From NCBI RefSeq assembly GCF_963921235.1, contig NC_086097.1:126544001-126608000 (forward strand): a stretch of 64,000 nt of DNA, read 5' to 3'. The translations under genes were made by a program, and so were the position numbers. The notes below the pieces were generated by a model. It did no database searches, was not told the DNA's origin, and saw only the letters and a list, made by a program, of their open reading frames with translations. Below, piece by piece: positions 30,701-57,826 of the stretch. The first letter of the stretch is position 1. Each line of letters starts with the position of its first letter. The stretch comes from Mobula hypostoma (taxonomy: Eukaryota).

Positions 30701-32234
30701 TATGACCACTTCACCATGCACCTATGCTCCATCCACCGTGCCAGCCAAGATTTCCTGATGGCCAGCCATTTTCATTCTATTTCCCATTTCCATATCAACA
30801 TGTTTATCCACAAAGTTCTCCACTGTCAGGTCAAGGCTACACAATTTAGAGGAACTGCACCTCATATTGTGTCTGGTGGCATGAACATCAAATTCTGCAA
30901 CTTCTAGTAACCACTCTCCCTCCTTCCAACCTCTCTTCTCCTTCTGATCCAACTAACCCCATTTACCCCATCTCTTTCCCTTCCTGCATCCTCTCCACTG
31001 CCCATCACCCACACACTCCCTCCCCTAATTGTCACCCCAACAACTCAGTCCTTTTATTCTGTTCCACCCTCCCCTCCTCACAGCTTCCATCATCATAACT
31101 TCCAGGTTCTGACATCATTTCCACTTTCCCCCCACCCTCAACTGCTTATCCATCCCCTCTCCTCTTTCAGTGCAGATAAAGGGTCTCAACTGGAAACTCT
31201 GAATGTCCATTTCTCTCTAGAGATGCAGCCTGACCCGATGAGTTCCTCCAGTAGTTTGTAAGTGACTCTATTTTACATACGTGTTGGGAAAGCGGTAAGT
31301 GGAAGGTGATTCTCTGGTCGTCAGTTGTCCAGCTGCAACAGGAATAAAATGGTAAAATATGTTGGACCTGAAGAAAAAAAGGGAAATAAGGAGTTAATAT
31401 GTTATGGAAACTAGGTTTAATTCCTTACTGAATCATGGAACAGTGCAGGTACCTGGGACCCCAGTATGATTCTGGTGACACCACTCTCAAGGACGAACCT
31501 GGAATCTGAAATTAAGAAAATGCTTAGTGACACTGAAAATCTCGTACTTTTACTATCCTGCTTAAACCGTGAGGGCACACCCTTGCAAGTAATACTTTGA
31601 ACAAAACTAGTTTGCCTCTTACATAATGCTGTTCATCTACCTTTCTTTTGTCAGATTCTAACAGAACTGTGCCTAGAGGATAAGCAACAAACTTGCCCAG
31701 TGTTTTAACGGAACAGCCTGGAAATAGCACACCTTTTAATTTTCCTTCCTTGTTCCAGGAGATATCAGATCTTTTCTCAGCCCCTCCCTGTGCAGGTGTG
31801 GTTTGGGCCAGGAACTCCGCCAAGAATTGTAATAAAACCTGCATGCCTCAAGGTTAGATGCTTGTGTATTCATGTTCACATGAATACACAAGCATACACT
31901 CAATACACAATTGATGCATTCTGAGGGCGAGGGGAAAAAAGAGTTGCGGCAATCTCTCCTAGTGAGATTATGTTTAAACAAACCAGGCTTTAGCATTCCT
32001 ACTAGATATTGTGCTGCATTATCTGTATGCTATGTAGTGATACAGACCAGCCAAGCCTTAGTTTTAATAGGTCTTGTGCTGAGTTAGTTGAATGTTACTG
32101 GATACTTCCCAGTAAACTAGATTTAAGATTTTCTCTGGGGTTCACACTTTTGTAGATTATTCATTGAAATTGGATATACTGTGAGAACTCTAACATCTCA
32201 CTTAAACTCCCCCTAGTGTATCTGATTATGCTAT

Positions 32235-32790
32235 GGGGTGTCAGGGAGGGGTAGCACCTCAGTTGGGGGGGGCATGTCGCATCCTTTTCAAGGCGGTTAG
32301 CCCACCTTTGGTCCCCACCTGGCACTCAGCTCTCACCTGTGGCTCCCCGTAGCTGTTTCCATGCGACAGCGGCCATGCCCCGGGCAACGGCTTCGACAAG
32401 CCGGCTAAACCAGGTGAGGGTAGCTGACGGGTCTCAAACCCTCGGTGAGATAGGGAGTTGTCTATCCCAGCATGTGAAGACAGTCTCCGGCGGATTGAGC
32501 GGACGAGACCAATGGTAGGTCCAACGGTCAAGAAGGCGGTCTCTGCAAGCGTCGTGGAACATGTAGAGCAGGATATGACACAGAAGATGTCCTGGTCATC
32601 CACTTCGCCTAGTTCCATCTCCAGCCGTCTTGACTCTGTCTTGCCACTGGATCCAGATGGGAATTGGGAAGAGAGAGTGAGGCTGACGCTGCGCAACTCT
32701 CCCTCACTTAAATCCAAATCAAGCGCTAGTCTCAACACCATCATAATGGTGTCGAGGTCCTCATTGACATCGACGATGGACGAACACCAG
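32235..32790 (+). mobile_element. Non-autonomous non-LTR retroelement (Vingi/Ingi- or RTE-derived, bipartite) headed by an HDV-like ribozyme
   Basis: GC-rich ~550-bp island in AT-rich DNA, no Pol III boxes, ribozyme fold at 5' end; resembles from memory marsupial WALLSI4-type elements; TSD not identified. Confidence 0.55.
32269..32420 (+). ncRNA. HDV-like self-cleaving ribozyme (predicted)
   Basis: P1 GGGGCAT/ATGCCCC, P2 CTCACCTG/CAGGTGAG, P3 GGC/GCC, L3 starting TCCCC, P1.1 CC/GG, GCAA then P4 CGGCTT/AAGCCG, J4/2 GCTAAA with candidate catalytic C32405, all in HDV order. Confidence 0.78.
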
Positions 32791-33029
32791 AATACGCAGG
32801 CCCACATTAAAGTCAAGCTTATATCATATGCACAAGTACATGTATGCACAGATGTAATGAAAAACTTACTTGTAGCAGCATCAGAGGTATATAGCATTTT
32901 ATAAGCAGCATTCATGCACAATTTTTACAAGAAAACACAAATTAGAGCAAAAAAAACAAGTCCATTCTAATGTAAAAATGATTGAAGTAGTGATAGTGTT
33001 GCTAAACTGTAGTGATTAGGGTTCCTTGC

Positions 33030-33730
33030 CTCAATTCGGGGCCCCAAACAGTCCTTCAAGGTGAGGCAACACTTCACCTGTAAATCTGAAGTGGTCGTCT
33101 ATTGTGTCCATTGCTCCCAATACAGCCTCTTCAACACTAGTGAGACCCGCCATAAATTGGGAAACTGCTTTGTAGAGCACCAATGCGCCATCCGCCCAAA
33201 GTGGAACTTCCCGGTGGCCAAACATTTTAATTCTGATTCCCATTCCTGTTCCAACATGTCAGTCCATGGCCTCCTCTGGTGCCACGATGAGGCCACCCGC
33301 AGGCTGAAGGAGGAACAGCTTGTATCGATTTCCCTTCTTGTAGAAAAAAAATTCCCTCCCTCCCCCTCCCCCTCCCCTCTTCTTCTTTTCCCCACACTGG
33401 CCTCTTACCTCTTCTCACCTGCCTATCACCTCCCCATGGTCCCTCCTCCTTCATTTTCTCCAATGGCCACTCTCCTCTCTTATCTCTCCAGCCTTTTATC
33501 CTTCCTACCCACCTGGCTTTAGCTTTCATCTTCTAGCTATCCTCCTTCACCTCCTCTCTCCTCTTTATTCTGGTGTCTTCACTCTTCCTTTCCAGTCCTG
33601 AAGAAGGGTCTCAGCCTGAAATGCCAACTGTTTATTCATTTCCATAGATGCTGCCTGACCTGACGAGTTCCTCCAGCATTTTGTGCATTGCTTTGGATTT
33701 CCCGCATCTACAGAATGTCTCGTGTTTGTG
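33030..33730 (+). mobile_element. Penelope-like element 3' part (GIY-YIG + pLTR) inserted in a Rex1 3' end (32810-34375)
   Basis: QHFTCKSEVVVYCVHCSQ...ETRHKLGNCFVEH...PVAKHFNS GIY-YIG; pLTR with CTGAAGA...GAAA at 33598-33621. Confidence 0.8.
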
Positions 33731-40702: not shown

Positions 40703-40740
40703 CAGTTGACGTTTCGGGCCGAGACCCTTCGTCAGGACTA
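40703..40740 (-). ncRNA. Minimal type I hammerhead ribozyme motif
   Basis: Minus: TAGTC-CTGACGA-AGGGTCTCGGCCC-GAAAC-GTC-AACTG; first stem I pair mismatched. Confidence 0.65.
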
Positions 40741-53749: not shown

Positions 53750-54964
53750 CAGCAGTCCCCAACCACCGGGCCGCAAAGCATGCACTACTGGGCTGCGAGG
53801 AAATGATATGATTTGGCGATATGAAAAAGCTTTCCTCATTTTGGCACCTTTCCTCATTCCCTGTCACGGCCACTGTTGAGCCATTACGCATGCGAGGTCA
53901 TTACCCGCGCGTCATCCATGTCAGCGCGGGAAGAGGATCAACTCCTCGAGCTTGCAAATGACGGCGGGCTGAAAAGTATGCTTGACATAACATCTCTGCC
54001 GGCATTCTGGATCAAAGTCAAGGCTAAATATCCTGAGATAGCCACGAAAGCACTGAAAACGTTGCTTCCATTTCCAACATCATATCTCTGCGAAGCGGAG
54101 TTTTCTGCAATGAATGCAATAAAAACTAAATCACGGAACAGACTGGACATAAGGAACCCCCTTCGAGTATCGCTGTCTCTCATCACCCCTCGATGGGACC
54201 GTGTTGTTGCAGGAAAACAAGCCCAGGGCTCCCACTGATTCAGCGATATTGGTGTGTTGCAATGATTTTATATGTTCATATGGGGAAAATATGTGCTGTG
54301 TGTTTAATATCCAAACGTTACTTAAAATGTTATGATGCTATTGACTTACTTATATCACCATATAACAATTACAGCATGGAAACAGGCCATCTCTGCCCTT
54401 CTAGTCCATGCCGAACGCTACCCTCACCTAGTCCCACCACCCTGCACTCAGCCCATAACCCTCCATTCCTTTCCTGTCCATATACCTGTCCAATTTTTCT
54501 TTAAATGATAGTATCGAACCTGCTTCTGCCACTTCTAGTGGAAGTTCGTTCAACACTTACTTCAAGCTCCCCTGTCCTCCCCTGATAATTGACTTATCAC
54601 TATATTCATGCGAGGAAAATATGCGCTGTGTGTTTAATATTAAATTCGTTAGATAAGCCCTTTTAGAAATGAAATTGTGTATTAGCCACTTATCACCTAT
54701 ATTCCGGTCGTGATTAACACCACCACCCCTCCCCCCCGGAACAGAATTGGCAAAAACGATTTGTAGAAAAAAATCCGCAGGCAGACGCATGCACACTGGT
54801 GCCTGTGCAAGGCTTCATGGTCATTGTAGTCTTTCTTGGGTAAACACAACGTATTTGACTGCTACTCTTGTCCGTTGGCAACCTCACCCACCGGGTCGGC
54901 CGGTCTGCAAGAATATTGTAAATATTAAACCGGTCCACAGTGCAAAAAAGGTTGGGGACCCCTG
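53750..54964 (+). mobile_element. Non-autonomous hAT (Charlie/Buster-like) transposon
   Basis: Perfect 8-bp TSD CTTTAGAG (53742-53749, 54965-54972); TIRs CAGCAGTCCCCAACC / GGTTGGGGACCCCTG; ORF 53876-54238 encodes the hAT C-terminal dimerisation region (FWIKV...PFPTSYLCEAEFS...QAQGSH). Confidence 0.93.
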
Positions 54965-55338
54965 CTTTAGAGTGTTAAACTTCATTTCCACATGATTGCT
55001 ATCATCTTCATCAGATTCTATTTCTAGACTTTGAAATCTATTCCTTACTTCAATTGTAAATTTTTGTCTTAAGTTTTCTTCTTTAACTAATTGCGAGTAG
55101 TCAAGCGATTGTTCAGATTTTTGCTTCTTTAGTTTTTTAAGTTTTACTTTTACATGATATACTACTGGGCTATGGTCACTATTACAGTCTGCACCTGGAT
55201 ATGTTTTGCATTGAGTCACTGAGTTTCTAAATCTTTGGTTTATAAGAATAAAGTCAATTTGATTTCTAGTATTATCACCTGGACTTTTCCAGGTCCACAA
55301 GCGTCTTGGATGGTTTTTAAAGTAGGTATTCATAATGA

Positions 55339-57826
55339 ATTTGTTGACTTGTTTGATGTTCGTATTTCTGATCTTGATCACACATTGTGGGATGTTTGTC
55401 TTTCTGGAGATGACCATGCTTTCTGGCTTTTTGGTGTTGATTGGGAGACCTCTGAGATTACTTTCTGCTGCCACCATAGTGAGTAGTTCTTGAAGTTTTG
55501 TCTCTGAGTCAGCTATTAATACGATGTCATCAGCATATCTGATGTTATTTATATTATGGCCTCCAATTGTGAATGCTTTGATGTCTTTGATACTTCTCAA
55601 GATATTTTCACTATACAGGTTGAAAATATCTTGAGAAGTATCAAAGTATCAAAGACATCAAAGGAAATATGAACATCAAACAAGTCAACAAATTCAAATA
55701 TCTTGGCAGCCTAATAACAAGTGATGGCAGGTGCGACACAAATATCAAATACAGAATAGCAATGGCAAAAGAAGCTTTCCAAAAAATGAAGACCCTATTA
55801 ACAGACAGAAAGATGAGCACGTACACTAAAAACAGAATACTGCAGTGCTACATTTATTCTATCCTGACTTATGGAAGTGAATGCTGGACCATTTCCCCAG
55901 CAATGGAAAAGAGACTAGAAGCAGCTGAATTATGGTTCTACAGGAGAATGTTAAAAATATCATGGACCACACACACATCAAATGAAGAAGTTCTCAGAAG
56001 AGCCCAAGCAGTTCGATCACTCATACCAACAATAAGAGAAAGACAACTCAGATTCCTAGGACAAATCATGCGGAAAGATGAACTAGAAAAACTCATTCTC
56101 TCTGGAAAGATTGAGGGGAGGAAACCTAGAGGAAGACCTTGGCTTATAGAAACATAGAAACATAGAAAATAGGTGCAGGAGTAGGCCATTCGGCCCTTCA
56201 AGCCTGCACTGCCATTTATTATGATCATGGCTGATCATCCAACTCAGAACCCTGCACCAGCCTTCCCTCCATACCCCTTGATCCCCGTAGCCACAAGGGC
56301 CATATCTAACTCCCTCTTAAATATAGCCAATGAACCGGCCTCAACTGTTTCCTGTGGCAGAGAATTCCACAGATTCACCACTCTCTGTGTGAAGAAGTTT
56401 TTCCTAATCTCAGTCCTAAAAGGCTTCCCCTTTATCCTCAAACTGTGACCCCTCGTTCTGGACTTCCCCAACATCGGGAACAATCTTCCTGCATCTAGCC
56501 TGTCCAATCCCTTTAGGATTTTATACGTTTCAATCAGATCCCCCCTCAATCTTCTAAATTCCAACGAGTACAAGCCTAGTTCATCCAGTCTTTCTTCATA
56601 TGAAAGTCCTGCCATCCCAGGAATCAATCTGGTGAACCTTCTTTGTACTCCCTCTATGGCAAGGATGTCTTTCCTCAGATTAGGGGACCAAAACTGCACA
56701 CAATACTCCAGGTGTGGTCTCACCAAGGCCTTGTACAACTGGAGTAGTACCTCCCTGCTCCTGTACTTGAATCCTCTCGCTATAAATGCCAACATACCAT
56801 TTGCCTTTTTCACCGCCTGCTGTACCTGCATGCCCACTTTCAATGACTGGTGTATAATGACACCCAGGTCTCGTTGCACCTCCCCTTTTCCTAATCGGCC
56901 AGCATTCAGATAATAATCTGTTTTCCTATTTTTGCCACCAAAGTGGATAACTTCACATTTATCCACATTAAATTGCATCTGCCATGAATTTGCCCACTCA
57001 CCCAACCTATCCGAGTCACCCTGCATCCTCTTAGCATCCTCCTCACAGCTAACACTGCCACCCAGCTTCGTGTCATCCACAAACTTGGAGATGCTGCATT
57101 TAATTCCCTCATCCAAGTCATTAATATATATTGTAAACAACTGGGGTCCCAGCACTGAGCCTTGCGGTACCCCACTAGTCACCGCCTGCCATTCTGAAAA
57201 GGTCCCGTTTATTCCCACTCTTTGCTTCCTGTCTGCTAACCAATTCTCCATCCACATCAATACCTTACCCCCAATACCGTGTGCTTTAAGTTTGCACACT
57301 AATCTCCTGTGTGGGACCTTGTCAAAAGCCTTTTGAAAATCCAAATATACCACATCCACTGGTTCTCCCCTATCCACTCTACTAGTTACATCCTCAAAAA
57401 ATTCAATGAGATTCGTCAGACATGATTTTCCTTTCACAAATCCATGCTGACTTTGTCCGATGATTTCACTGCTTTCCGAATGAGCTGTTATCACATCTTT
57501 GATAACTGACTCCAGCAGTTTCCCCACCACCGACGTTAGGCTAACCGGTCTATAATTCCCCGGTTTCTCTCTCCCTCCCTTTTTAAAAAGTGGGGTTACA
57601 TTAGCCACCCTCCAATCCTCAGGAACTAGTCCAGAATCGAACGAGTTTTGAAAAATTATCACTAATGCATCCACTATTTCTTGGGCTACTTCCTTAAGCA
57701 TCAAAAGCATAGCCAGGTGGCTACACATCGAGGAAATGGAAGTCATCCAAAAAACGAAGGATAGATCTGCATGGAAAACCATGGTCACCGAAGTCCGCAT
57801 TGGATATGGTACCTAGACAGACAGAC
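55339..57826 (+). mobile_element. RTE-clade LINE B, 5'-inverted (twin-primed) insertion, split by a CR1
   Basis: 11-bp TSD ATTCATAATGA (55328-55338, 57827-57837); inverted RT part 55339-55620 (RYADDIVL), sense part 55664-56145 + 57700-57826, (AGAC)n tail. Confidence 0.88.
56146..57699 (-). mobile_element. Young 5'-truncated CR1 LINE with an uninterrupted RT reading frame
   Basis: ~485 open codons: NYRPVSLTSVVGKLLE, YLDFQKAFDKV, GVPQGSVLGP, FVDDTKL, LVRPHLEYCVQFW; (TTTCTATG)n tail. Confidence 0.95.

Follow-up and report, generated by a model that had tools for sequence, protein, structure and literature searches.

The window, a stretch of 64,000 nucleotides of the Mobula hypostoma genome (NC_086097.1, positions 126,544,001–126,608,000), contains a copy of a short RTE-type non-autonomous (bipartite) retroposon of about 560 nt (32232..32787; positions are those of the window, and the element lies with all its parts on the plus strand). 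The head of this family is predicted to fold into the nested double pseudoknot of HDV-like ribozymes with a 20-nt insert in loop L3, and it probably is an active ribozyme, freeing the element from read-through RNA before its first G. A fold of this kind at the head of an RTE-type retroelement had been proposed in a first-pass annotation of the window and is supported by our analysis. The copy in the window itself lacks the first 6 nt of the family. The probabilities that we attach to this reading and to three alternatives discussed below are not mutually exclusive.

The element is abundant in the genome. A relaxed core pattern requiring the L3 insert gave 1,469 exact matches versus none for the reversed control, and a repeat search returned 3,968 first-look candidates, 40 of which were scored and were 94–95% identical. 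Family copies are about 560 nt long, have (AAC)n, (AACC)n or (AC)n tails, and in most cases are flanked by target-site duplications of 7–14 bp; the DNA upstream of the copies is unrelated. The window copy differs from the family majority at 25 of 540 positions (4.6%), compared with 6–18 positions in other copies (1.1–3.3% in 29 of them). Its possible target-site duplication (32788..32797) is degenerate: it matches 32222–31 in 7 of 10 bases by eye and is uncertain. In one case (L051/L052, C1:21776675-21777294), two full-length copies were found in tandem, 576 nt apart.

Downstream of the ribozyme-like head, the body of the element (32421..32730) derives from an RTE 5' UTR, being 70–76% identical in alignments to autonomous families of the genome. 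It is followed by a junction (32731..32756) and an RTE-type 3' terminal stem-loop with a short (AAC) tail (32757..32787), which ends as in the young autonomous family C; 24 of 29 nt are identical to the 3' end of this LINE. A part of an RTE 5' UTR, a LINE-like 3' end and a microsatellite tail are the features of bipartite non-autonomous RTE elements, and no coding capacity was found. Open reading frames over the element were rejected as genes, having neither a Pfam match on either strand nor a longer homologue; the frame within the body also had no Pfam match. A representative protein library yielded 17 scattered hits (best E value of 2e-12), which may be other predicted readings of the UTR. 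No tRNA or 5S head was identified on the element by the Rfam search.

Every segment of the helices named in the first-pass annotation was present letter for letter in the window: GGGGCAT (32269–75) and ATGCCCC (32375–81), assigned there to P1; P2 (32332–39/32411–18); P3 (32341–43/32372–74); P4 (32388–93/32398–403); L3 of 28 nt (32344–71) with GCTGT/ACAGC; GG (32382–83) followed by GCAA; and GCTAAA including C32405. P2 can be extended to 10 bp (32330–39/32411–20). Its 5' strand segment (32330..32340) includes a putative inner pair T32340–A32409, which, with C32410 bulged, would leave J4/2 as the 5-nt GCTAA. In the HDV numbering (PMC1874588, PMC6326823), segment 32341..32351 comprises the P3 5' strand GGC and an L3 core of canonical length (U20, C21, C22, C23, C24, G25, U26, A27). 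The insert (32352..32371) is followed by the P3 3' strand GCC, the P1 3' strand (ATGCCCC here, ACACCCC in the family), P1.1 GG and J1.1/4 GCAA (32372..32387), the 6-bp P4 hairpin (32388..32403), and J4/2 with the predicted catalytic C32405 and then the P2 3' strand (32404..32420). The J1/2 domain (32236..32327) is predicted to form a long P1.2 rod with its base at 32236–45/32318–27, according to folding (about −36 to −51 kcal/mol in six sequences) and compensatory changes between lineages.

The relaxed-L3 descriptor search, which the annotation had proposed as a check, was run with a 7-bp P1, 6-bp P2, 3-bp P3, 4-bp P4 and L3 of up to 40 nt. Its sole match in the window was the annotated locus, where the P1 5' strand could lie at either 32235 or 32269. 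The same descriptor gave 10 hits on both strands of 552 simulated 64-kb windows; thus, the fold is beyond chance. Plain MFE folding of 32262–32425 was not distinct from shuffles (z of −0.12) and is uninformative because the method cannot model pseudoknots. The expectation that standard descriptors could miss such an L3 variant proved correct for the Rfam models. Nothing was found over the window at the gathering level, no HDV family matching it at threshold, and a search of its 30–35 kb segment revealed no HDV family at E values up to 10. With an intact copy, the sole match was the HDV family RF02682 (HDV-F-prausnitzii), over J1.1/4-P4-J4/2, at 13.2 bits versus a gathering score of 44 (E value of 5.3); J1.1/4, the base of P4 and J4/2 agree with its consensus, including a pyrimidine at position 76. 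A copy with a shortened L3 matched no Rfam ribozyme family.

The 5' ends of the copies mark the predicted cleavage site of the family. Among 30 copies chosen by the core pattern alone, 22 start exactly at the first G of GGGGTGT-AT-GGGGTGTCAGG, 27 start within 4 nt of it, and none starts at 32269, which contradicts the earlier placement of cleavage 5' of G32269. The first seven nucleotides, GGGGTGT, pair perfectly (7 bp) with ACACCCC, which was the P1 3' strand in 48 of 51 scored copies (51 of 59 loci matched were scored for this strand and for L3 length), and a G1-C pair is present at the foot of P1 in all eight aligned copies. The family has P1, P1.1, P2, P3 and P4 in the nested double-pseudoknot order, a G1-Y pair at the base of a 6–7 bp P1 and a cleavage site predicted at the first nucleotide, as is characteristic of HDV-like ribozymes. 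The short element (e.g., L011:1487-1502), the autonomous families A and B and a homologue from another host, L036, all carry GGGGTGY twice at their start, at a spacing of 9 nt; the second GGGGTGY is the base of P1.2. In 24 of 38 full-length copies (L002-L066), a T precedes the first G, mostly as the final base of the target duplication. Genomic HDV is fastest with U-1 (PMC1874588), and target preference would explain this T equally well.

In the window copy, the family P1 5' strand (element nt 1–7) is gone except for its last base, T32232, and the fold called complete in the annotation is complete only in the rest of the core, which is undamaged. Copy alignments show host sequence at 32226..32231 in place of the family GGGGTG, that is, the P1 5' strand and the predicted cleavage site; the latter would map near 32226. 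The energy of P1 was estimated with P3 and the L3 hairpin forced and the P2 strand held open. The native P1 was within the lowest-energy fold in three of three intact copies (penalty of 0.1–0.3 kcal/mol), whereas either substitute P1 of the window copy costs 7.2–7.8 kcal/mol because the P1.2 rod is broken. The substitutes are the second GGGGTGT repeat at the foot of the rod (32235..32241, about +7.8 kcal/mol), a fallback P1 strand, and the annotated strand inside the rod (32269..32275, about 7.2 kcal/mol). Having lost nt 1–6 and facing this cost, the window copy is likely crippled and, by these folding estimates, would probably cut poorly or not at all.

Relatives of the element were searched for in the genome, in metagenomes, and in viral and prokaryote collections; the last two gave no matches. 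The metagenome scan returned four loci, of which one, L036, was real; the other three were judged by eye to be chance matches without P1 or P2. L036 is a metagenome contig of another host, in which a homologous head lies about 750 nt upstream of an APE endonuclease frame. The longer homologues of this frame, found in many aquatic animals, carry APE and RT in a single frame of about 1,060 aa. A search of the genome with L036 revealed 30 endonuclease loci; a homologous head was located upstream in 19 of them, with the hairpin arms in 18 of these 19. The head-bearing loci split into families A and B, and a further type, D, was found among the pattern matches listed (100 of 118). The partners have PF03372 and PF00078 in one frame of about 1,060–1,130 aa; architecture and by-eye likeness to RTE-1_PSi and RTE-3_AMi point to the RTE clade. 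The 20-nt insert, P2, P3, P1.1, P4 and the equivalent of C32405 are common to these APE+RT relatives and to L036. A second short family (L031, L117-L123, L125) combines the ribozyme head of family A with another 3' tail, which ends in (GAC)n or (GCGA)n; its sequence suggests an exchange of tails.

The 5' part of the short element is 70–76% identical to the autonomous 5' UTRs over about 500 nt or 280 nt, and no autonomous element closer than about 80% was found. Family C, which is young (open frames of more than 1,000 aa), is the nearest over the shared UTR, with 73–76% identity and 93% bootstrap on 279 nt. Its head is GC-rich and has no homology to the ribozyme in eight of eight copies; neither an Rfam ribozyme family in this head nor an HDV descriptor match upstream of family C was found. 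The null result of the descriptor is no evidence in this case because three of three decayed positive controls were also null. We infer that family C swapped its head and supplies the protein to the short element. In family C (L107-L116), some copies have ~36-nt tandem repeats in the GC-rich head, and the family occurs in two forms, one of which lacks about 300 nt of the 5' UTR from a point next to the 5' arm of the inverted repeat described below. Directly upstream of one family C copy, an intronless glyoxalase-family frame (PF13669, L107:195-749) extends into the head of that copy, which may reflect a 5' transduction.

Structure was analyzed across lineages on eight copies from five lineages, chosen as well preserved; the structure was drawn on these same copies, and 95% of the cells of their alignment pair. 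Nine of 55 pairs are changed on both sides (four in P4, four in P1.2 and one in P2), compared with 0–1 in slid controls. Shuffles reached the observed values in 0–1 of 500 cases on four of five measures and in 22 of 500 on the fifth. Both-side changes were absent from P1, P3, P1.1 and the L3 hairpin in this set. Covariation in the helices that the first-pass annotation had named for this check is thus partial, being seen in P4 (4/6 pairs) and P2 but not in P1 and P3. The annotated catalytic C32405 is supported by the conservation of its C75 equivalent in all five lineages, where J4/2 reads GC(T/C)AA, i.e., C75 followed by NRA. U20, C21, C22, G25 and the P1.1 partners were also kept in all lineages. 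In HDV-like ribozymes, U20, C24 and G25 of L3 are conserved and C21/C22 pair with G39/G38, according to PMC6326823; all these features were found in the window's family, family B and L036. In families A and D, C24 is replaced by A, and L3 positions 23–24 are A. Family B has a C-A mismatch at the top of P1. Contigs from other organisms aligned to L002:1460-2080 contain further P4 variants, some apparently compensatory; they are unphased. Among the sequencing runs screened, 17 of 24 contained at least half of the sequence words searched for, in every case as contigs, in which RNA ends do not show; three raw DNA runs gave no aligned reads.

The atypical length of L3 noted in the annotation was confirmed at 28 nt, with GCTGT/ACAGC, but the canonical loop is 8 nt (U20–U27, PMC1874588) and not about 7 nt; the insert is thus 20 nt. 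It is located at the 3' end of L3 and consists of a predicted hairpin of 5–6 bp (32352–57/32365–70) and one G. Since L3 deviates from about 8 nt, we class the ribozyme, pending assay, as a variant working like the HDV-like family. L3 was 28 nt long in 50 of 51 scored copies. Ten matches with a short L3 were all different single deletions and hence represent no amplified lineage without the insert; no short-L3 lineage was found in the genome. The annotated hairpin is present and conserved, but it remains a prediction because it shows no compensatory change at the lineage level. A compensatory subfamily was not found either: a compensating 5' change accompanied the 3'-arm change in 1 of 16 copies. 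When P3-L3 was folded without constraints, the insert paired with U20 or other L3 bases in each of the six sequences, which in these models indicates a risk of misfolding.

We weighed a different drawing of the same ribozyme, in which a canonical 8-nt L3 is closed by the next GCU and the 20 nt lie at the P3-to-P1 crossover without any L3 hairpin. In favour of it, position 27 is invariably followed by GC(U/C), whose pairing with GGC would produce the 8-nt L3 of HDV, and the hairpin has no compensatory changes. In one family A copy, the energy gap between the drawings is only 0.2 kcal/mol; however, the one with the hairpin was the lower in six of six sequences (by 0.2–3.7 kcal/mol) and leaves the P3 3' strand joined directly to that of P1. 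Moreover, differences between lineages are mainly in the hairpin loop, while the arms are still paired in 97% of cells. We consider the drawing without the hairpin unlikely and the hairpin within L3 likely, as far as folding models go. It is very unlikely that the window copy is an intact ribozyme with P1 at 32269–75, cut 5' of G32269. That P1 has seven of seven Watson–Crick pairs in the window copy, the remaining core is undamaged, and a transcript starting just upstream of 32269 would have no competing rod strand. However, the register is private to one copy: the 5' strand reads GGAACAT in the family (GGGGCAT in none of 29 other copies), and ATGCCCC in its context occurs once in the 3.48-Gb genome, in the window copy. 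Forming this P1 in a read-through transcript would break the P1.2 rod, and no copy among the 30 starts there.

A relic, an internal promoter or a protein-binding fold (cf. Pr77 of L1Tc) would also account for a conserved head, the sharp 5' end then being a transcription start. Family C retrotransposes with an unrelated head, and the ribozyme is therefore not required by every relative. Against this explanation, five lineages retain C75, U20, G25 and the P1.1 partners despite variation in P4 and the loops, the element starts precisely at the first G of P1, and there are no amplified lineages without the core or the insert. We regard this explanation as quite improbable and prefer an HDV-like ribozyme with a hairpin in L3.

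The junction of the short element is an 11-bp inverted repeat (32731–41/32746–56) at which its 5' UTR part meets its 3' end part. Autonomous relatives have an inverted repeat between the equivalent UTR position and their 3' end. In family A, it is 18 bp long and exceeds all 30 shuffles in four of four copies. In family B, none of three copies exceeded the 30 shuffles, and in family C two of six did, one of them at another site; the repeat of these two families is weaker and was identified mainly by inspection. By eye, the marsupial element WALLSI1A joins at the same spot as the short element. A 5'-3' duplex of RTE RNA was not found described in the literature searched.

We propose the following course of events for an intact copy. 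Host read-through RNA would fold the element head, in which P1 (nt 1–7 with ACACCCC), the ~90-nt P1.2 rod and the extended P2 would pinch the core as in drz-Agam-2. C75 would act as the general acid for cleavage before the first G, and the 20-nt hairpin would stand out between position 27 and P3, at the 3' end of an L3 that is canonical in its other parts. The freed RNA would then be reverse-transcribed by an RTE protein reading the 3' stem-loop; since the ending of family C matches that of the short element, the family C protein is probably the partner. As a hypothesis for its origin, the short element may have arisen when reverse transcriptase skipped across a duplex that the 5' UTR of the parent RNA forms with its 3' end. 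In a broader and more tentative generalization, which we hold with less than even confidence, a branch of RTE in this and other hosts would have an active HDV-like ribozyme with an undescribed L3 helix, missed by descriptors and Rfam, and its 5' UTR–3' end duplex would be a fixed deletion site, repeatedly yielding bipartite short elements here and in marsupials.

Non-LTR retrotransposons headed by HDV-like ribozymes, RTE among them (Ruminski et al. 2011, as cited by PMC6765202 and PMC5786205), have already been described, and so have bipartite RTE elements (PMC6765202, PMC5786205, PMC7761336). R2 ribozymes include variants with a long J1/2 or without P4 (PMC3774820), and the architecture of P1.2 and a long P2 speeds drz-Agam-2-1 (PMC4908430). 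With drz-Agam-2-1 and the RTE HDV-like ribozymes our family shares a nested double pseudoknot placed exactly at the 5' terminus of an APE+RT element, the structured long J1/2 (P1.2) with an extended P2, and many copies with conserved downstream and differing upstream DNA. It differs from them in the predicted 20-nt L3 hairpin, fixed in all five lineages, in the doubled GGGGTG start, and in A23/A24 of two lineages. Like WALLSI1/1A/2/3, RTESINE2, MAR4_MD and RTE-N2_Lch, the element combines a 5' UTR part with the last ~40 nt of an RTE (PMC5786205), and its body and tail resemble by eye RTE-3_AMi, RTE-1_PSi and the marsupial WALLSI (Kojima 2018 supplement, PMC5786205). Unlike WALLSI1/1A/2, in which the head is replaced, it keeps the full ~190-nt ribozyme head; it also differs from the elements listed in having no tRNA or 5S head and in its junction, a closed 11-bp hairpin. 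R2 SIDEs and L1Tc/NARTc have likewise been shortened by internal deletion, retain an HDV-like head and use the protein of the parent (PMC6765202). They belong to other clades, insertion is dispersed in our family, and an L3 insert is not mentioned for them in the available part of that source.

No L3 hairpin was found described in the literature searched, and figures or supplements of Ruminski 2011 and Webb 2009 may show one. Provisionally, we regard the L3-hairpin variant as new and the function of ribozyme-headed RTE as already known. L3 is part of the HDV active site and has been treated as fixed in length; a natural lineage-wide L3 hairpin would mean that insertions are tolerated at a third point in addition to J1/2 and P4. 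It would also offer an engineering handle and imply that searches under-count such ribozymes in animals. The family is easily testable, since its RNA is only about 200 nt long and five lineages supply natural variants. The sharply defined starts of the copies give genomic support to the view that ribozymes process RTE RNA in a vertebrate-type genome. The duplex at the junction offers a possible reason for RTE being among the few clades that spawn bipartite short elements, a question left open by Kojima 2018 (PMC5786205).

Some other features were found elsewhere in the window. Six copies of a repeat with a hammerhead-like core (CTGANGA...GAAA) were located at 33598, 41294 and 48516 on the plus strand and at 40735, 41684 and 62503 on the minus strand. 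Several of them form inverted pairs, and all are below Rfam thresholds; we take this repeat to be of the Penelope-like kind. Reverse-transcriptase fragments (PF00078) of other LINEs were identified at 56244–57812 and 54884–55648 (−).
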